Source of the DNA: Minisyncoccota bacterium
GTDB lineage: Bacteria > Patescibacteriota > Minisyncoccia > Phycocordibacterales > CAIJYI01
Length of the DNA stretch: 64,000 nucleotides
NCBI GenBank assembly: GCA_023229825.1
Contig: JALNYN010000005.1
Coordinates: 1,933-65,932, forward strand
Reading direction: 5' to 3'
Position numbers and translations under genes: made by a program. Each line of letters begins with the position of its first letter. Within the stretch, counting starts at the first letter, position 1. A model generated the notes under the pieces. The model ran no database searches, was not told the origin of the DNA, and worked only from the letters and a program-made list of their open reading frames with translations. Positions 7,616 through 64,000 of this stretch are shown here, piece after piece.

Positions 7616-8102
7616 GGCAAATTCTAGCATATGCCGCCTAGCCGGATTAATTTGGTTGATAATCGCTCGGACCATAGACCATTTTTCATCCAGTTTTATC
7701 CAAAACAAAAACGAGTATCGCCGGACGGGGTTTGTAACCCCGTCCGAAACGTTTGGCGATCTTGATCGAGTCTGTGCTTCAAATTAACCATAAACGAAGC
7801 CTCCAAATGTTTCGGACAGGGGTATCCCGCTCGCAAGCGGGACCCCGCACGCTGCGGTGGCAACCCCAGTCCGGCGACGGGGCTGTGATCGGATCATATT
7901 TTCATTCGTATACAGATATTCATATATTATTTTTGCGATCAAAATTGCTGATTTCAACTTCGCAACATGACAATTCTCATGTATTTTTTTCATACACGCG
8001 AATTGTGTCAAAAAACGTCAAAAAAGGCTTGCGCTATCGAACTAAAACTACGATAGCACCAACCAAGTTAACGCGGCTATCACGCATATGCTAGAATTTG
8101 CC
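7616..8102. mobile_element. MITE-like non-coding element bounded by 19-bp perfect terminal inverted repeats (ggcaaattctagcatatgc)
   Basis: Left end ggcaaattctagcatatgc and right end gcatatgctagaatttgcc are exact reverse complements; interior has no credible ORF and carries a family-A structured repeat. Confidence 0.55.
7719..7882. repeat. family-A palindromic repeat, copy 1 (inside the TIR element)
   Basis: ccggacggggtttgtaaccccgtccgaaacgtttgg ... ccaaatgtttcggacagggg ... caaccccagtccggcgacgggg; nested hairpins; related copies at 19.2 kb and 31.8 kb. Confidence 0.55.
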
Positions 8103-12988: not shown

Positions 12989-13765
12989 TTACTTGCAGGC
13001 AGCGCACGGATATCTCTCGAGTTTATTATATCCGCCATCGTTGTTTTGCTTCCAAACATTGAATCGAAGAATTTTTCGATCCGGATGAGCCTTCATATTG
13101 AGGACGATGGAGGCGGAAACTCCCCAAACCAATTCATCGCCGTCCGGACCAAGCCATTTCATCGGGATCGGCTCCTTTGGCTCGTCTGCCTTGATAAGTT
13201 CGCTGACCAGGATCTGGATCGCCAGATCATGTCCGGTACTGATCCGATAAAGCGAATCGCGATTGTAACGCGGCGCTTCGAGGGCGGGAGGCGTATGCTG
13301 TTCCGGCAGCGGTTGTTCTTTCCCGTTAAGGGTTAAACGAAGGGGTTCCTTTTGTTTTAGCGGAACCTTTTTCAATTTTACCTCGCTACCTGCCGTCGGA
13401 CGTTCCGTATTGTATTGAACCGCATTTTCTCTTCGGATCTTAACGGTTGAGGCAAAACGATAGCGCGGTTTGTCGTCGCCCCATTCTTTGGAGTAGACAT
13501 AAAAATTCAATCCAAAGTCGGTTACCGGAAGATCCAAGGCTCCGGCTGACATTTCGTCCGTTAAAGATTCGATCATCTTCCAGCTTGTTTCGACAAGACC
13601 GTGAGAATCTTTCTCAAACTTTTTCGGAAGTCCAACGGCTTCCGTCGGATCTATTCTTGTGTGTCCAACGTTCATTTCGTAAATTTTTTCCGCCGATCTC
13701 GGATCGAGCGGCTGAAGATACCATTTTCGCCGTTTGAAACGGACGCGAGCGATTAATGCAGACAT
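12989..13765 (-). CDS. hypothetical protein
   Basis: 258-aa ORF, no recognised motifs. Confidence 0.4.
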   Translation of the reverse strand: MSALIARVRFKRRKWYLQPLDPRSAEKIYEMNVGHTRIDPTEAVGLPKKFEKDSHGLVETSWKMIESLTDEMSAGALDLPVTDFGLNFYVYSKEWGDDKPRYRFASTVKIRRENAVQYNTERPTAGSEVKLKKVPLKQKEPLRLTLNGKEQPLPEQHTPPALEAPRYNRDSLYRISTGHDLAIQILVSELIKADEPKEPIPMKWLGPDGDELVWGVSASIVLNMKAHPDRKILRFNVWKQNNDGGYNKLERYPCAACK

Positions 13766-13936
13766 CGATAATACCTCACGATTCGAGTGTTAAAAAGCAT
13801 TGTTTCTAATAAAAATTATATCATGTATGTTTAAAAATAGCAAGGCAGAGCCGGTTGACATAGGATGTTTTCGATGTAGTATCAATTTAGATTGCGTACT
13901 TTGAAAAATCGCCTCGTCGGGTGAAGGAGTTTGTTC

Positions 13937-14311
13937 ATGAACGAAATACAAAACGAACCGCAAAAGCAGGAAACAAAAACAGAACCGATTTGGGTCATTA
14001 AAGGATATTGCAAATCCTGCAAAAAATGCGTCTATGCCTGTCCGGCCGGAGTACTTTCGATGGCCGAGGTCAAAGAAGCGATACCTGGCTGTATGATCTC
14101 AGTCGATCGGCCCGATCTATGCATCGGATGCCGGCATTGCGAATACGCTTGTCCAGACCGCGCCATTTCGGTGGCGGAAAAAAATGAATTTCCTTTTGCG
14201 AAGAAAATAACGCCGGAAGCGAAAGAGCGCCAGACAAAAATACTGGCGAACGATTGCCAATCACTATCAACAGGAGAAAAAGATGAGAAAGCTGAAAGCG
14301 AACGGCAATGA
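13937..14311 (+). CDS. 2-oxoacid:ferredoxin oxidoreductase delta subunit (2x[4Fe-4S] ferredoxin)
   Basis: Two CxxCxxCxxxCP motifs (CKSCKKCVYACP, CIGCRHCEYACP); ATG preceded by GGAG; first gene of the D-A-B/G cluster. Confidence 0.75.
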   Translation: MNEIQNEPQKQETKTEPIWVIKGYCKSCKKCVYACPAGVLSMAEVKEAIPGCMISVDRPDLCIGCRHCEYACPDRAISVAEKNEFPFAKKITPEAKERQTKILANDCQSLSTGEKDEKAESERQ

Positions 14312-19217: not shown

Positions 19218-19325
19218 CGTTGCCCGACGGGGTTTGTAACCCCGTTGGAACGTTTGGAAATAACGATGAATGTGGTTTATTACAAACGTTTCGAACGGGG
19301 TCAGAGACCCGCGTCCGGCGGCTAT
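19218..19325. repeat. family-A palindromic repeat, copy 2 (intergenic)
   Basis: cccgacggggtttgtaaccccgttggaacgtttgg ... caaacgtttcgaacggggtcagagacccgcgtccggcgg. Confidence 0.55.
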
Positions 19326-31562: not shown

Positions 31563-33212
31563 GTGGAAAATCTTGAGCAAAAACGACGAGTTTTGAAACG
31601 ACTGCGCGAATGGAGAGATGCGGAGGCTAAACGCATGGGCCTTGATTTTTTTCGCGTGCTTTCCAACGATGCGGTAAATGGCATCGCGGAAACTTTGCCG
31701 ACGACGAAAGAAGCGCTTTTGGAAGTGAAAGGGATCGCCGAGAAAAAATGGCAGACGTACGGGAGGGATATTCTTGCCATTGTGGCGGAAGAAACGACGC
31801 AAGGACTTTTTGCGACGGATGCCGTCGCCGGACGGGGGTTGTACCCCCGTTCGAAACGTTTGGATGAAAGCACGGAAGAAACAATAACCAAAACATCCGA
31901 ACAGGGGTACAACCCCAGTCCGGCGGACGGAAATTATGACGAAACTGAAAACGATGGCTCCCGCGATGGCTATCGACAATCCGGCGAAAAGGTCTTTACT
32001 GTTGCCGACTACTTGGAAATTCTTAATACCGGACTCCGGCAGTTTGAAGCGAAAGTCATTGGCGAGATCACCAGTTTGGATATTCGCGACAAATATATTT
32101 TTTTCAGCATCAAAGATAAAAAGGACAACGCGATGATGTCGTGTTTCATGTGGGGCTCGTCGTATAAAATGAGCGGAATTTTACTGGAAGAAGGAATGGA
32201 AGTGGCGGTGCATGGTTTTCCCGAAATGTACAAGCCGAGCGGACGCATGACGTTCCGCGCCGACAGCGTGGAATTGGTAGGCGAAGGCGCGCTTAAAAAA
32301 GCATACGATGAACTGAAAAAGAAACTTGAAAAGGAAGGGCTGTTTTTGGAGAGCAGAAAAAAACCGATCCCCGAATATCCTCAAAATATCGGGCTGATAA
32401 CATCAGAAACCGGCGCGGTCATTCACGACTTTTTGAATAACATCGGAAAATTCGGTTTCAAAATATCATTCCGCGATTCGCGCGTGGAAGGCGCGCTGGC
32501 GGTGAAAGAATTGGTGAGTGCTGTGAAATATTTTAAAAAACAAAAATCTATTGATGTATTAGTTTTGATCCGCGGAGGCGGTTCGCTCGAATCCTTGCAG
32601 GCGTTCAACAATGAAGCGCTGGTGCGCGAAATTGCCGATTGCCCGTTTCCCGTGCTGGTCGGCATCGGACACGACAAAGATGTGCCGCTCGTTTCGCTTG
32701 TTGCAGACAGAGCCGGCTCAACACCGACGGCCGTCGCCAAACTGCTTAATTCGACGTGGGAGCAAGCGCTGGCGAAGGTACGGCTTCACGAACAAAAAAT
32801 TTTGAATCGTTTTTCAGAAGCATTATATGAGAAAAAAGATAATTTGCGCGATCGTTCGGAACACATCGAAAAAAAATTCCGCATGATCTTTGAGAGATTT
32901 CGAAACGCGGAAGAAAAAATAAAAAGAAATTTCGTCGCTATCGGAAGCGCCATGGCGCGTGCAAAAGAACGGCTCGATCACTCGCAGAAAACATTAAAAG
33001 AAAAATTAACTGATGACATTCGGCGCTCTAAAGAAAAGATCATATACATCGAAAAAATGCTTGTCGCGAATAACCCCATGCGCCAGCTGAAACTCGGATA
33101 TTCGCTCGCTCTTTCAAAAGGCAAGGTGGTAAGAAAGATAGAAGATGTTGCGAGCGGCGATGAAGTTGATATCAGGGTAGAAAATGGGACGATTAAAACA
33201 AAAGTGGAATAA
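31563..33212 (+). CDS. xseA: exodeoxyribonuclease VII large subunit with N-terminal HRDC-like domain and repeat-derived linker
   Basis: FTVADYLEILNTGL... OB-fold N-terminus and catalytic core (IRGGGS, GIGHDKD); residues 1-70 HRDC-like; residues ~75-140 encoded by family-A repeat; GTG start. Confidence 0.8.
   Translation: MENLEQKRRVLKRLREWRDAEAKRMGLDFFRVLSNDAVNGIAETLPTTKEALLEVKGIAEKKWQTYGRDILAIVAEETTQGLFATDAVAGRGLYPRSKRLDESTEETITKTSEQGYNPSPADGNYDETENDGSRDGYRQSGEKVFTVADYLEILNTGLRQFEAKVIGEITSLDIRDKYIFFSIKDKKDNAMMSCFMWGSSYKMSGILLEEGMEVAVHGFPEMYKPSGRMTFRADSVELVGEGALKKAYDELKKKLEKEGLFLESRKKPIPEYPQNIGLITSETGAVIHDFLNNIGKFGFKISFRDSRVEGALAVKELVSAVKYFKKQKSIDVLVLIRGGGSLESLQAFNNEALVREIADCPFPVLVGIGHDKDVPLVSLVADRAGSTPTAVAKLLNSTWEQALAKVRLHEQKILNRFSEALYEKKDNLRDRSEHIEKKFRMIFERFRNAEEKIKRNFVAIGSAMARAKERLDHSQKTLKEKLTDDIRRSKEKIIYIEKMLVANNPMRQLKLGYSLALSKGKVVRKIEDVASGDEVDIRVENGTIKTKVE
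31824..31932. repeat. family-A palindromic repeat, copy 3 (inside xseA reading frame)
   Basis: cgccggacgggggttgtacccccgttcgaaacgtttgg ... ccgaacaggggtacaaccccagtccggcggacgg. Confidence 0.55.
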
Positions 33213-38392: not shown

Positions 38393-38546
38393 CTTAACCA
38401 ATGCAACCGACGTCAACATTACAAAAAATATCCCACCGAAAATTTCAGACAAACGGCACCCGGTTTTTTCCGCGCGACACTTTCATATGCAAAAAGAAAC
38501 GTTACAACACGCGTTTATCAAAACAATGGTGCCTGTCCCCATTTTC
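38393..38546. repeat. ~160-bp direct repeat unit H, copy 1 (ends in family-C REP-like hairpin)
   Basis: ttaaccaatgcaaccgac...ttccgcgcgacactttcatatgcaaaaagaaacgttacaacacgcgtttatcaaaacaatggtgcctgtccccatttt; near-identical at 40160-40333, degenerate at 40814-40979. Confidence 0.6.
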
Positions 38547-40166: not shown

Positions 40167-40333
40167 AACGTGAGAAAATTTTAACCAATGCAACCGACAG
40201 TAACATTACAAAAAACATCCAACAGAAAATTTCAGACAAACGGCGTCCGATTTTTTCCGCGCGACACTTTTATATGCAAAAAGAAACGTTACAACACGCG
40301 TTTATCAAAACAATGGTGCCTGTCCCCATTTTC
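40160..40333. repeat. direct repeat unit H, copy 2
   Basis: Starts within the last codons of paralog 2 and runs through a second copy of the MQKETLQHAFIKTMVPVPIF start and REP-C hairpin. Confidence 0.6.
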
Positions 40334-40820: not shown

Positions 40821-40979
40821 ACCGTGAGAAAATTTTAACCAATGGAACCACCAACCGGATTACAAAAAATATCCCACCGAAAATTTCAGATAAACAGCTG
40901 CCAAGTTTTTCCGCGCAGCCCCTTCACCATAAGCAAAAAAACACCTCAACACATATTTTGAAAAGAATGGGTGCCTGGA
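40814..40979. repeat. direct repeat unit H, copy 3 (degenerate; ends in degenerate family-C motif agaatgggtgcctgga)
   Basis: gggaagtaaaccgtgagaaaattttaaccaatggaacc... aligns with copies 1 and 2. Confidence 0.5.
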
Positions 40980-41060
40980 TTTATTCAACCTTGAACTGCA
41001 ACAGTCGTCGTTGATGGTCGATAGCGCGCCGAACTTAACGAACACAGAAGAAAAGTTCGA

Positions 41061-48078: not shown

Positions 48079-48439
48079 AGGTTCCCGTATCGGATAGTTG
48101 CCCCGAGTTTGTCGAGGGGAGGAAAGTCCGAACACACACTGCCGTCACAAGCGACAGTAGCATGGTAGCGGGTAACGCCCGTCCGGAGCGATCCGCGAGA
48201 TGCGAGCAGAGACGGTTTGTTTTGAAAGAAACAAACTATCCTTCGCAAGAAGGATAAGTTCTCTTGGTAACAAGAGAGGTGAAACGGCTAAACTCTTACC
48301 GGTGTGCAAGGCCGTGTCCCGATTTATCGGGAAGTGCCGCTTGAGGGTTGTGGTAACATAACTCCCAGATAAATAACTATCGTCCTGCGTAGCCTCGGCA
48401 AAGCAGGATACAGAATTCGGCTTACAGATACGAGAACCT
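48079..48439 (+). ncRNA. rnpB: RNase P RNA (bacterial type A)
   Basis: P4 core GAGGAAAGTCCG, GGTGAAACGGctaaactcTTACC, ACAGAAttCGGCTTA; P1 pairing aggttcccgtatc / gatacgagaacct. Confidence 0.7.
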
Positions 48440-48445
48440 AATAAA

Positions 48446-60656: not shown

Positions 60657-60700
60657 TTTCAAGGATTTGTGCTATGATAGCCAGTGTAAATCGAGATATT

Positions 60701-60770
60701 GGGGTGTAGTGTAATGGTAACACGCCTGCCTTTGAAGCAGGAGACTCTTGGTTCGAGCCCAAGCGCCCCA
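60701..60770 (+). tRNA. tRNA-Gln (anticodon TTG)
   Basis: Acceptor GGGGTGT/GCGCCCC (two G-U pairs), anticodon stem CCTGC/GCAGG with loop CTTTGAA, T-arm CTTGG-TTCGAGC-CCAAG; CCA not encoded. Confidence 0.7.
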
Positions 60771-60847
60771 GCACGCAAAAAATTACCTCGCAAAGGAGTA
60801 TCTTTTGCAGGTGATTTTTGTGTAAATTATTAGCATACGGATTTTAA

Positions 60848-60869
60848 AAAGAATGAGTGCCTGACTACC
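60848..60869 (+). repeat. family-C REP-like hairpin (degenerate)
   Basis: aaagaatgagtgcctgactacc between tRNA-Gln and ATPase gene. Confidence 0.45.
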
Positions 60870-60903
60870 GTTCGTAAGAGAATTATAACTGTCTCGAATT
60901 TAT

Positions 60904-62637: not shown

Positions 62638-62661
62638 CAGAATGGGTGCCTGACCCCGATT
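62638..62661 (+). repeat. family-C REP-like hairpin
   Basis: cagaatgggtgcctgaccccgatt. Confidence 0.5.
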
Positions 62662-62710
62662 CTACTTATTCAAAATTCATGTACTAATGATTTAATCGGA
62701 TTGAAAAAAA

Positions 62711-63217
62711 ATGGATTGGGAAACCTTTATTATTGCTATACTTGGATCTGGTGCTGTTACCGCGCTTGTTAATGTATGGATGAATCACCGAACTCAAATT
62801 CGCGCAATAAAAGAGTCGGGGCTATATTCAAAACGAGCCGAAGTATTAGATGAAATAATGAAAAGAATGGAGGAACTCCATCGAATTATGGGGGAACTCG
62901 TTTCTTTTTTTCAAGATGACGGGTCGGCTGATGCTGAAAAAGCCCGACGTAAAAAAACAGCCGAGGCGTTTAATTGTTTTTTGGAGTATCTCAAGAGAAA
63001 TAGGCACTATTTACCACGGAAATTATCCGAGGAAATACAACACCTCTGCGATGAATATAAAGAGTTATTTATGAGTTTTTCTTTTGAAGCAAGGCCAGAA
63101 GAGGGGAGGTCAGACCTTAAAAAATGGAAATCGCTTATTGATAGGTACGATATGGATTTTACAGATCAACAGGAATGTATAGCCGACGAGTTTAGAAAAA
63201 TAATCGGTGTTAAATAA
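62711..63217 (+). CDS. hypothetical protein with N-terminal TM helix and helical cytoplasmic domain (partner of the ATPase-nuclease gene)
   Basis: FIIAILGSGAVTALVNVW hydrophobic helix, then charged helical region; no recognisable motif. Confidence 0.4.
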   Translation: MDWETFIIAILGSGAVTALVNVWMNHRTQIRAIKESGLYSKRAEVLDEIMKRMEELHRIMGELVSFFQDDGSADAEKARRKKTAEAFNCFLEYLKRNRHYLPRKLSEEIQHLCDEYKELFMSFSFEARPEEGRSDLKKWKSLIDRYDMDFTDQQECIADEFRKIIGVK

Positions 63218-63228
63218 TAGGTAATGGT

Positions 63229-63247
63229 AATGGGGTCAGGCACTATT
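63229..63247 (-). repeat. family-C REP-like hairpin, inverted orientation, immediately upstream of RAYT
   Basis: aatggggtcaggcactatt = reverse complement of aatagtgcctgaccccatt. Confidence 0.55.
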
Positions 63248-63261
63248 GTTTTTAAAAAAGT

Positions 63262-63957
63262 ATGATACAATATTCTCCTATGCCAAGAAATGAAAGAGTT
63301 GATGTCGGGGGTGAAGTCTATCACGTCATAAACAGAGGAAATGGCAGGCAGACTATTTTCCAAAATGAAGAAGACTATCTTCTTTTTGAATCACTGCTTG
63401 AACACGCAAAGGAATTTATTGTGGATATGAGAATCATCGCTTATACGATTATGCCGAATCATTGGCATCTTGTTTTGTATCCAAAAAAGGACGGTGATCT
63501 TTCTCTCTTTATGCACTGGCTTACGACAAGCCACACCCGAAAACATCATGTCATGAAAGAAAATATCGGTGGCGGGCATCTCTATCAAGGAAGATACAAA
63601 TCATTTCTTGTGGATACGGACAGTTATTTTCTCTCTGTTTTTAAATACGTAGAAAGAAATCCGATGAGGGCAAAGTTGACGGAAAATTGTGAAGATTGGC
63701 GATGGGGAAGTTCGTGGAGAAGATCGAACGGTTCGGAAAAAGAGAAAAAATTGCTTTCCTCGCCGCTCGTTGATTTTCCGGAAAAATACAGCGTATGGAT
63801 AAACAAACCGGAAAAAGAAGATGATGTTGTAAAGATCAGAAATTCGATAAATAAAGGAGTACCGTATGGTCGCGATATTTGGAGTATGGATATGGTTGAA
63901 AAATATGAATTGTCTTCATCGCTGAATAAGCCGGGGAGACCGAAGAAAAAACATTAG
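63262..63957 (+). CDS. REP-associated tyrosine transposase (RAYT; IS200/IS605-like Y1 HuH transposase family)
   Basis: HuH motif IMPNHWHLVL and catalytic Tyr context YQGRYKSFLVDTDSYFLSVFKYVERNPMRA; flanked by inverted REP-C hairpins. Confidence 0.8.
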   Translation: MIQYSPMPRNERVDVGGEVYHVINRGNGRQTIFQNEEDYLLFESLLEHAKEFIVDMRIIAYTIMPNHWHLVLYPKKDGDLSLFMHWLTTSHTRKHHVMKENIGGGHLYQGRYKSFLVDTDSYFLSVFKYVERNPMRAKLTENCEDWRWGSSWRRSNGSEKEKKLLSSPLVDFPEKYSVWINKPEKEDDVVKIRNSINKGVPYGRDIWSMDMVEKYELSSSLNKPGRPKKKH

Positions 63958-63972
63958 AACATGAAAATTACA

Positions 63973-63995
63973 AAAGAATGGTGCCTGACCCCATT
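63973..63995 (+). repeat. family-C REP-like hairpin, direct orientation, immediately downstream of RAYT
   Basis: aaagaatggtgcctgaccccatt. Confidence 0.55.
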
Positions 63996-64000
63996 AACCA

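Follow-up and report, generated by a model that had tools for sequence, protein, structure and literature searches.

A Y1 HUH gene between inverted repeats in a Paceibacterota genome: a probable TIRtron

Close to the end of a 64,000-nucleotide stretch of DNA from a Minisyncoccota bacterium (contig JALNYN010000005.1; the whole stretch is called the window throughout), a gene for a Y1-type HUH protein stands between two inverted copies of a short, dyad-symmetric motif. To what kind of system do this gene and its repeats belong, and which of the two moves? The original prediction, made from the letters of the window, was the canonical arrangement of a REP-associated tyrosine transposase (RAYT) and its repetitive extragenic palindromes (REPs). 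That identification does not stand. REPs are defined by a GTAG or GTGG placed 0-2 nt 5' of the foot of the hairpin (Quentin et al. 2018, PMC6006769). The repeats of this locus have neither tag, no G+C-rich stable stem and few copies, and carry instead the signature GGGGWSAS, which is known from terminal inverted repeats (TIRs).

RAYT-like genes with long TIRs, and not GTAG-tagged REPs, were described by Di Nocera, De Gregorio and Rocco (2013, BMC Genomics 14:522, PMC3733652), who named the protein TIRYT and the unit TIRtron. According to the same paper GGGGWSAS is common to many such repeats, which in some genomes make up moderately abundant families of single, dimeric or clustered copies. Twenty of 26 TIRYTs fall into subclass 2.1 of Quentin et al. 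(PMC6006769), which corresponds to group 1 of Bertels. We consider it likely that the present locus is a TIRtron of this kind, that is, a TIRYT gene (subclass 2.1, group 1 RAYT) between its two cognate TIRs.

The basic layout that had been predicted, a Y1 gene enclosed by inverted copies of a motif, is borne out. The upstream 19-mer aatggggtcaggcactatt lies inverted, on the minus strand, at 63229-63247, and the downstream 19-mer aatggtgcctgaccccatt is direct, on the plus strand, at 63977-63995. The window stops 5 nt later, and contig k141_1286909 of ERZ27249449 (ENA, 78 kb; locus L001) was used to read past its end. On this contig the two sides form a gap-free inverted repeat of 25 nt with 92% complementarity and arms 719 nt apart, which reaches about 50 nt per side if one indel and the inner box are counted. 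The parts of the locus are as follows.

63280 to 63957, plus strand: probable TIRYT gene, encoding a class-2 Y1 HUH protein of 225 amino acids; the longest open reading frame (ORF) runs from 63262.
63222 to 63271, minus strand: upstream TIR, consisting of tail stutter, dyad motif, A/T-rich spacer and inner box.
63222 to 63233: tail stutter of the upstream TIR, TAATGG twice.
63229 to 63247: dyad motif of the upstream TIR with GGGGTCAG, the latter itself at 63232 to 63239.
63260 to 63271: inner box of the upstream TIR, gtatgatacaat.
63953 to 64000, plus strand: downstream TIR, consisting of inner box, A-rich spacer, dyad motif and tail.
63953 to 63963: inner box of the downstream TIR, ATTAGAACATG, overlapping the stop codon TAG at 63955 to 63957.
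63977 to 63995: dyad motif of the downstream TIR, AATGGTGCCTGACCCCATT, with the complement of GGGGTCAG at 63985 to 63992.
After that motif: tail of the downstream TIR, AACCATTAA, CCATTAA twice, extending about 3-8 nt beyond the end of the window.

Each TIR of about 50 nt is built from an inner box ATTAnAMCACA, an A/T-rich spacer of about 10 nt, an imperfect dyad and a short tail. The dyad reads AATGG-T-G [CCTGA] C-C-CCATT and contains the family signature GGGGWSAS, which is fitted by GGGGTCAG in the flanking TIRs and by GGGGACAG in the copies at 38.5 kb and 40.3 kb. Every copy in the window has AAAAGA or AAAACA 5' of the dyad, with the GTAG/GTGG tag absent. With up to 2 mismatches allowed, the window has 6 occurrences of the 13-mer core where 0.41 are expected; in 100 shuffles the count never came to 6. 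Rfam models at their gathering thresholds matched nothing at 63.2-64.0 kb.

The 231-amino-acid protein of the original prediction corresponds to a real ORF (63262-63957, plus strand, in the ORF list of the window), whose product matches Pfam Y1_Tnp at E=5e-14, but its true start is probably 63280, giving 225 residues. The later start is preferred because MPR is the N-terminus of all 34 of the 34 aligned homologues; the alternative ATG at 63262 falls within a promoter-like -10 element. Of the two signatures that had been named, HWH is indeed the HUH motif (NHWH, with H61 and H63), whereas YQGRY, part of LYQGRYKSF, is not the motif of the catalytic tyrosine. Judging from the alignments, that residue is Y123 in KYVERNP. 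Invariant in 35 homologues are N60-H61-x-H63, L101-Y-Q-G-R-Y-K-S-F109 and Y123-x-E-R-N127, together with several tryptophans of the C-terminal extension and G219-R220 of the GRPKK tail (GRPKKKH in this protein). The extension, some 90 residues long, is conserved and mostly helical in the homologue alignment and the structure model.

The prediction that the protein belongs on the RAYT side and not with the IS200 TnpA proteins also holds. Y---NP defines class 2 (TnpA_REP-like) and Y---Q the IS200 transposases (PMC6006769); the protein has the former, and no tnpB accompanies it. An AlphaFold2 model (mean pLDDT 83.6, pTM 0.81) has 4ER8, the E. coli REP-associated tyrosine transposase (TnpA_REP) bound to a REP hairpin, as its best solved match in Foldseek (E=2e-8, TM 0.75 on the target), followed by the ISDra2, IS200 and IS608 transposases at E of about 1e-5 to 1e-4. 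A profile search of PDB sequences likewise ranks 4er8 first (E=1.3e-4) and aligns its catalytic Y115 with the tyrosine of KYVERNP (Y123); Y115F is a catalytic mutant of E. coli TnpA_REP (PMC8266576). The sole NCBIfam model matched is REP_Tyr_transpos, at a sub-threshold 58 bits against a cut-off of 80. Both neighbours of the gene, a 168-aa ORF (62711-63217) and a 152-aa ORF, are without a Pfam match, and PADLOC has no match for the Y1 protein or the 168-aa ORF. The latter, lying between convergent motif copies, was tried as a partner gene and rejected because the closest relative, L154, has no counterpart there.

An identical protein is labelled by NCBI 'MAG: transposase [Candidatus Paceibacterota bacterium]', and a protein search gave 5015 homologues at E<=0.001. 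The best 120 of these 5015 are 222-243 aa long and 56-82% identical; those named among the best 120 come from Parcubacteria, Paceibacterota, Kaiserbacteria, Lloydbacteria and Yonathbacteria, and the gene is therefore common in this lineage of the candidate phyla radiation (CPR). With more than 5000 homologues, and the named best 120 drawn from the Paceibacterota and Parcubacteria groups, the system is not the notable rarity in a reduced-genome lineage for which it had been taken. Homologues also occur in Pirellulales, in Anaerolineales and on proteobacterial plasmids; a scan of viral contigs gave no relatives of the Y1 protein. Our literature search found no paper that treats RAYTs in CPR/Patescibacteria as a system, one preprint merely mentioning a KEGG K07491 match in an archaeon, and the motif string in no paper, except for GGGGWSAS in Di Nocera et al. 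(2013).

The repeats are not confined to this locus. From 31 protein-anchored loci of GTDB genomes, 150 nt on each side of the gene were inspected for the 26 closest (L004-L029), and nearly all 26 have inverted copies of a related motif beside the gene, in variants such as AATGGTGCCTGACCC, AACCGTGACTGTCCCGGTT, AATGGTGGCTGTCCCCATT, AAACGGTACCTGACACCGTTT and AAAGGTTCCTGACACCTT. In most of them the motif core is found roughly 40 nt ahead of the start codon on one side and roughly 35 nt past the stop codon on the other. Over these 26 loci and the window (410 kb), a 12-nt degenerate core has 55 copies where 3.5 are expected, 43 of them within 300 nt of the gene and 12 farther off. With the invariant CTG as anchor, the consensus is ATTAnAcCACa-N10-AAtaAAtGGTGC|CTGACCCCaTTt, and in 13 repeats, on both sides of genes, the inner box begins exactly at -31. 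The complete genome of a Ca. Nomurabacteria organism (L016, CP060229.1) holds two TIRYT genes 3 kb apart, 57% and 52% identical to the query, of which the second, at 13587-14284, has a different repeat variant (AAATGGTGGCTGACCCCATTTTC vs AAACCGTGACTGTCCCCGTTT). This pair suggests that each TIRYT protein may co-evolve with its own repeat. Much farther away, a tblastn search of plasmids recovered a 234-aa Iodobacter fluviatilis 'transposase' with NHVH, LWEGRF and YIELNP, which aligns with the window protein over its full length, tail (IR..NKG..G....GRP) included, at 29% identity (E=3e-28). Inverted copies of TTTGCTCTGACCCCAGTTATT (...CTCTGACCCC...) lie on both sides of its gene.

The inner box of the upstream repeat has a second face. 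Read on the gene strand it is an extended -10 element, TGATACAAT, at 63263-63271, 8 nt before the ATG at 63280, and orthologues carry TGGTATAAT at the corresponding place upstream of the gene. We infer from this that the box may act as a promoter. A simple promoter consensus scan did not call the extended -10 site, because the -35 region is poor. In the downstream repeat the same box is directed into the 3' end of the gene, across the stop codon. A reading of the inner box as a DnaA-box-like site (TTWTNCACA) was also tried; the agreement is limited to 7 of 9 positions unless a 1-nt insertion is allowed, and the reading remained speculation.

That the motif is a dyad is supported by covariation across genomes and not by stability in the window. 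In a gap-free alignment of 49 distinct repeats (A2), a model in which 9 bp of stem enclose a 5-nt loop has 67.8% of its cells paired, against 61.7% in shuffles, and a covariation score of 0.169 against 0.088; none of 500 shuffles scores as high, and every slid register scores lower. Pair 9-23 is UA in 23 repeats, CG in 7, AU in 6 and UG in 4, and position 12-20 is mostly a T.C mismatch, for which some lineages have T-A or G-C. Across the related loci the loop is conserved as NCTGW. Furthermore, in 87 distinct metagenome instances the bases flanking an exact 18-mer core are complementary more often than expected at both outer pairs (0.51 vs 0.30 and 0.57 vs 0.37), a level attained by 0 and 1 of 500 permutations, and the stem extends contiguously by at least 3 pairs in 32 of the 87 instances against about 9 expected. 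Within the window, the copy at 62640 is the only one that folds better than its shuffles (-4.8 kcal/mol, z = -2.5).

The same repeats also occur without a gene. Scanning metagenome contigs for the exact motif ATGGTGCCTGWCCCCATT gave at least 119 stretches, with 131 motif copies among the matches listed, and the six-frame ORFs of the 119 stretches were searched with a profile hidden Markov model of the protein. Among those 131 listed copies, 8 are within 300 nt of a Y1 gene, and 4 share a contig with such a gene at a greater distance; 85 are without a Y1 gene although the contig leaves 800 nt or more on the inner side, and 34 lie too near a contig end to be assessed. The gene-free share is 85 of the 97 assessable copies among the matches listed. 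Immediately before the core stands an A in 76 of 87 instances among the matches listed, so most of the metagenome matches should be true members of the family and not chance 18-mers. Contigs with listed matches span 36-70% G+C. Many of the high-GC matches are inverted doublets, for example GGGGTCTGGCTCCATTTTCG...CGAAAATGGTGCCTGACCCC, and the low-GC ones often have the CPR-type inner box. In the window, five extra copies had been predicted, and they are of unequal quality.

38491 to 38546, plus strand: complete solo TIR with box GTTACAACACG, spacer and AATGGTGCCTGTCCCCATT containing GGGGACAG, within a 153-nt module.
40278 to 40333, plus strand: second copy of this solo TIR (repeat families D1, 93%, and D5, 97%).
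40961 to 40977, plus strand: truncated TIR with the 5' arm AAAAGAATGGGTGCCTG only, broken in the loop after CCTG and joined to GATTTATTCAACCTTGAACTGCAAC.
60852 to 60872, plus strand: degenerate copy of the motif, AATGAGTGCCTGACTACCGTT, 80 nt after a tRNA-Gln gene and 32 nt before an ATPase gene.
62640 to 62662, plus strand: solo TIR-type motif, GAATGGGTGCCTGACCCCGATTC, complete and without inner box, between the ATPase gene and the 168-aa ORF.

Three of the five, with motifs at 38522, 40309 and 62640, are complete, the copy at 40961 is a half, and the one at 60852, a direct repeat of the 62640 copy, is degenerate. The first two share the 153-nt module, which has been duplicated in tandem with paralogous small membrane-protein genes, and as parts of one locally duplicated module they count as one event; the 64-kb window has 3 complete gene-free copies, two of them from one duplication. 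The solo TIR at 38491 is 74% identical to the downstream TIR of the gene over 58 nt, and an element identical to it is present on metagenome contig L070. No further copies of the motif were found in the 10 kb downstream of the window, and the 78-kb contig as a whole has 5 good copies and no close doublet.

Many copies carry what look like traces of breakage and rejoining. Partial tandem copies of the 3' arm, which we call stutter, follow 61 of 227 copies on the 3' side; the mirrored test on the 5' side gives 20 of 227, and random positions 59 of 1135. The locus itself has (TAATGG)x2 upstream and (CCATTAA)x2 downstream. The repeated units of the stutter are 12-15 nt long. Orphan 3' halves starting with TG[AT]C were found 29 times no more than 60 nt downstream of a full motif; a C stands before 20 of the 29 (69%), whereas heptamers of this kind elsewhere have one in 22%. 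Cleavage at C|T or C|A beside the REP is documented for RAYTs of groups 2 and 3 (PMC8266576), and by analogy the junctions in the partial copies, most of which are C|T, suggest cleavage at C^T, with one site possibly within the loop.

Two further structures fit breaks in the loop. The window copy at 40961-40977 is broken there (..GGTGCCTG) and joined to a conserved sequence, GATTYATTCNNNYTTGAACTGCAAC (region 40961-41003), and the upstream repeats of the Y1 genes of both L007 and L024 show the same loop junction and joined sequence (about 40-100 of each locus, minus strand). The joined sequence, for which a permissive Rfam scan of 40.7-41.5 kb gave only sub-threshold chance matches, could represent a favoured target or else a second kind of element end. 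In L154 (CAYPFT010000014.1, 5200-6000), which holds the closest homologue (82% identity), nested tandem partial copies precede the full gene. They comprise repeat, promoter and 5' end of the gene, measure 62, 112 and 387 nt and are 68-77% identical, and the array looks like repeated one-ended duplication starting at the repeat.

These data allow other explanations to be weighed against a TIRtron. The one that survives best, and which we nevertheless regard as unlikely, is that of an autonomous insertion sequence (IS) in which the whole repeat-gene-repeat unit of about 790 bp moves, whether in IS200 fashion or as a classical element bounded by TIRs. It would account for repeats at fixed short distances from the ends of the ORF, the downstream one overlapping the stop codon, and for the patchy spread of the family, Pirellulales, Anaerolineales and proteobacterial plasmids included. 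The closest relative, L154 at 82% identity, lies in a wholly different, unrelated gene neighbourhood; in 6 of the 26 closest loci the gene is no more than 200 nt from a contig end, pointing to assembly breaks at repeats; and group 1 is the most IS-like group of RAYTs (Bertels et al. 2017, PMC5581495). Against this, no near-identical second copy was found. The exact protein occurs on three contigs only, in the same neighbourhood on all three, the 78-kb contig has one copy of the gene, and related genomes have 1-2 copies, the paralogues of one genome being about 50% identical and having different repeat variants. Gene-free repeats far outnumber gene-linked ones (85 of 97 assessable, among the matches listed), inverted asymmetric hairpins are unfit for IS200-type excision, the tyrosine motif is Y---NP and not Y---Q, and no target-site duplication is evident around the gene-plus-repeat unit. 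The data fit a low-copy gene with occasional transfer, as published, and not a proliferating IS. The system had also been called active-looking; nothing shows current activity in this genome, and we saw no signs of recent activity there.

Less probable again is a canonical REPtron, in which a RAYT of the group 2 or 3 type multiplies a high-copy population of REPs or of their paired forms (REPINs). A RAYT-like protein, inverted flanks, a dyad-symmetric motif with dispersed copies and the REPIN-like inverted doublets in high-GC contigs are all what such a system would show. The motif, however, has no GTAG or GTGG at its 5' foot, and its stem is A/T-rich (base AAT/ATT), weakly folding and marked by a conserved T.C mismatch. 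Three full gene-free copies in 64 kb, two of which arose through one duplication, are few for a REP population, and a motif conserved across phyla at 36-70% G+C contrasts with REPs, which are species-specific (PMC6006769). Finally, the protein has a long C-terminal tail and aligns over its full length with a protein of subclass 2.1, for which the account in PMC6006769 gives no REPs. That the motif serves chiefly in regulation or protein binding, as an operator, promoter module or terminator, and is bound or nicked by the Y1 protein with no copying of the motif, is very improbable: the upstream repeat does overlap an extended -10-like element before the gene, with TGGTATAAT in orthologues, the plus-strand copies of the window do sit 32-134 nt upstream of plus-strand genes, and cross-phylum conservation is expected of a protein-recognition site, yet downstream copies keep the same box and spacing with no gene to drive, stutter, nested partials and doublets are footprints of breakage-rejoining or duplication, and the HUH and tyrosine catalytic residues are invariant in 35 homologues.

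Taking the locus as a TIRtron, we can propose how it might work. By homology to TnpA_REP and IS608 TnpA, the TIRYT protein would recognise and bind the hairpin form of the dyad where DNA is single-stranded, as at replication forks. It would cut and rejoin at C^T or C^N dinucleotides, with Y123 forming a 5'-phosphotyrosine link. One cleavage site would probably be in the loop (GCC^TGA) and one at a C^N lying 3-5 nt past the 3' foot of the stem. The outcome would be that the short repeats, and not the gene, spread, duplicate and shuffle. With an asymmetric hairpin and inverted flanks, the recognised strand would be presented on opposite strands, and the gene could therefore not leave by IS200-type single-strand excision; TIRYT would stay resident, at one or two copies in each genome. 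An extended -10 promoter, 8 nt from the ATG, would come from the upstream repeat; the transcript would then have almost no leader, and the protein, by binding this repeat, could regulate its own gene. The conserved C-terminal domain and the GRPKK tail would probably read the inner box and the A/T spacer.

A wider proposal can be built on this one, tentatively and with the odds in our view clearly against it: the family may be an ancient, still-functional system for cutting and joining single-stranded DNA, which has kept a hairpin of about 19 nt near-unchanged across phyla, cuts, unlike IS200-type transposases and RAYTs of groups 2 and 3, in the loop (GCC^TGA) as well as past the stem, and in CPR scatters 50-nt modules that bear promoters. 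If true, it would be a source of mobile promoters and local rearrangements in streamlined CPR genomes. Among RAYTs, group 1 (TIRYTs) is the largest group, and Parcubacteria/Paceibacterota, a small-genome lineage where repeats are unexpected, have the family very commonly. The C|T junctions amount to a concrete, testable prediction of the cleavage site. For annotation, the point is that genes labelled 'transposase' do not here look like a self-copying insertion sequence.

Several observations weigh against the TIRtron assignment or the mechanism attached to it. The folding energies of the flanking copies, taken as single-stranded DNA, are 0 to -3.1 kcal/mol and do not stand out from those of shuffles, and the AATGG..CCATT hairpin of the original prediction is in these copies no more stable than chance. 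The covariation would fit equally well a palindromic binding site for a dimer on double-stranded DNA. Tandem partial copies could stem from replication slippage, and where the base before TG is C the junction may equally be |CTG. A cut in the loop is unlike IS608 or E. coli TnpA_REP, whose cleavage sites lie outside the hairpin in the latter case. Our literature search found no biochemistry reported for group 1 / subclass 2.1 proteins, and binding, strand choice and cleavage sites are for that reason only inferred. The HUH motif is NHWH, with a middle W, where the published subclass signatures are NHVH and NH[YF]H. HTH-like (helix-turn-helix-like) tails are reported for the subclass (PMC6006769), and none was detected here by Pfam: scans of the C-terminal 89 residues, of 35 homologues and of the Iodobacter protein gave no HTH and no Bac_DnaA_C, HTH_23 or HTH_28, the Iodobacter protein being likewise without a Pfam HTH despite its exact 2.1 signatures (NHVH, WE, YIELNP). 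Lastly, the copy numbers of gene and repeats for this organism cover 78 kb of its genome.

The surroundings of the repeats have features of their own. Between 37917 and 40820, three tandem paralogous genes for small membrane proteins (155, 141 and 147 aa) are each followed by the 153-nt solo-repeat module, and a 395-aa ORF at 38487, whose called start is inside the module, resembles the C-terminal part of the upstream 1397-aa protein. The segment 60700-63217 begins with tRNA-Gln(ttg) (60700-60772), to the 3' side of which are a 573-aa ABC-type ATPase and the 168-aa ORF, which could not be annotated; it may be a small variable island. The ATPase is similar to defence-system proteins (PADLOC AriA 2.8e-25, also GajA, PtuA and Old; Pfam AAA_15 and AAA_21). 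Its gene lies between the direct motif copies at 60852 and 62640, and the 168-aa ORF between the convergent copies at 62640 and 63229. Just upstream of the tRNA-Gln gene, at 2414-7331 of L001 (about 55.7-60.6 kb of the window), are hydrogenase-maturation genes for HypF, HypC, HypD and a HypE-like AIRS protein; the RNase P RNA is at 48082-48440 of the window.

The window also holds other repeat families, in a number that is unusual for a small genome. One is a different, far more stable palindrome, CGTCATYCCGGR-N5-7-YCCGGRATCCACG (-8.8 kcal/mol, z = -3.3), with 11 copies, some of them in close inverted doublets that include 27189/27263, 49032/49099 and 51225/51296.

Positions of the CGTC-type palindromes: 26368, 27189, 27263, 33229, 49032, 49099, 51225, 51296, 52490, 55460 and 58045.

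The CGTCATYCCGGR palindromes begin with CGTC and in this resemble the 'CGTC-tagged REPs' that Di Nocera et al. (2013, PMC3733652) described, for which no dedicated transposase is known. They were considered as a substrate of the Y1 protein and rejected: none flanks the gene, and the sequences are unrelated. A third palindromic family, CGGACGGGGTTTGTAACCCCGTCCGAAACGTTTGG (families D9 and I11), has 3-4 copies at 7718-7756, 19220-19258, 31825-31863 and 31888-31925, with one pair forming an inverted doublet 24 nt apart. Additional families are D7/I10 (CCCTGATACTGATAC), D8/I15 and D10/I2.

How, then, does the locus compare with the systems already described? With the TIRtrons it shares a RAYT-like Y1 HUH gene, TIRs that have GGGGWSAS instead of being GTAG REPs, distances between TIR and ORF that are similar across organisms, and gene-free copies of the repeat elsewhere. 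It differs in its host, which belongs to the CPR (Paceibacterota), whereas the set of 2013 came from cultured Proteobacteria, Acidobacteria and others, and in the conserved inner box ATTAnAMCACA, which stands at a fixed spacing in this clade.

Subclass 2.1, as characterised in PMC6006769, has a median length of 238 aa, the motifs NHVH/NH[YF]H, W[EQ]/FQ and YIELNP/Y[IV]HLNP, an HTH-like C-terminal tail and 1.9 copies per genome at 49% identity, with no REPs found. The present protein is comparable in its length of 225 aa, in Y---NP (YVERNP), in an aromatic residue followed by Q (YQ, as against W[EQ]/FQ), in a conserved C-terminal tail, in an apparently low copy number with paralogues about 50% identical and in having no GTAG REP nearby. 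Its YVERNP has ER where the published signatures have EL or HL, and a covarying dyad accompanies it, whereas that study reports no REP-like structures for the subclass.

E. coli TnpA_REP (RayT/YafM; group 2) is the best structural and PDB match and shares the HUH motif, the single tyrosine in Y---NP and inverted repeats beside its gene, and its C|T cleavage matches the junctions seen here. It is only 17% identical to the window protein, is without a long C-terminal tail and cuts outside the hairpin, as opposed to the loop site proposed for TIRYT. The REPs and bacterial interspersed mosaic elements (BIMEs) of E. coli differ from the TIRs in their GTAG tag, their G+C-rich, bulged stem, their hundreds of copies and their species specificity.

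The TnpA proteins of IS200/IS605 elements (IS608, ISDra2) have the Y1 HUH fold in common with the window protein, and subterminal hairpins recognised on single-stranded DNA. They themselves have Y---Q and a core of only some 150 aa; both end hairpins lie on one strand, near-identical copies are numerous, and a tnpB gene often accompanies them. At the locus we find YVERNP, 225 aa with a tail, inverted flanks and no second copy. Covariation of the stem and a 3'-arm stutter joined at C|T are absent from those parts of the TIRYT and RAYT literature that we drew on. The TIRtron arrangement itself has been known since 2013; what may be new is the dyad that covaries across phyla, the inner box specific to the CPR and the stutter joined at C|T.

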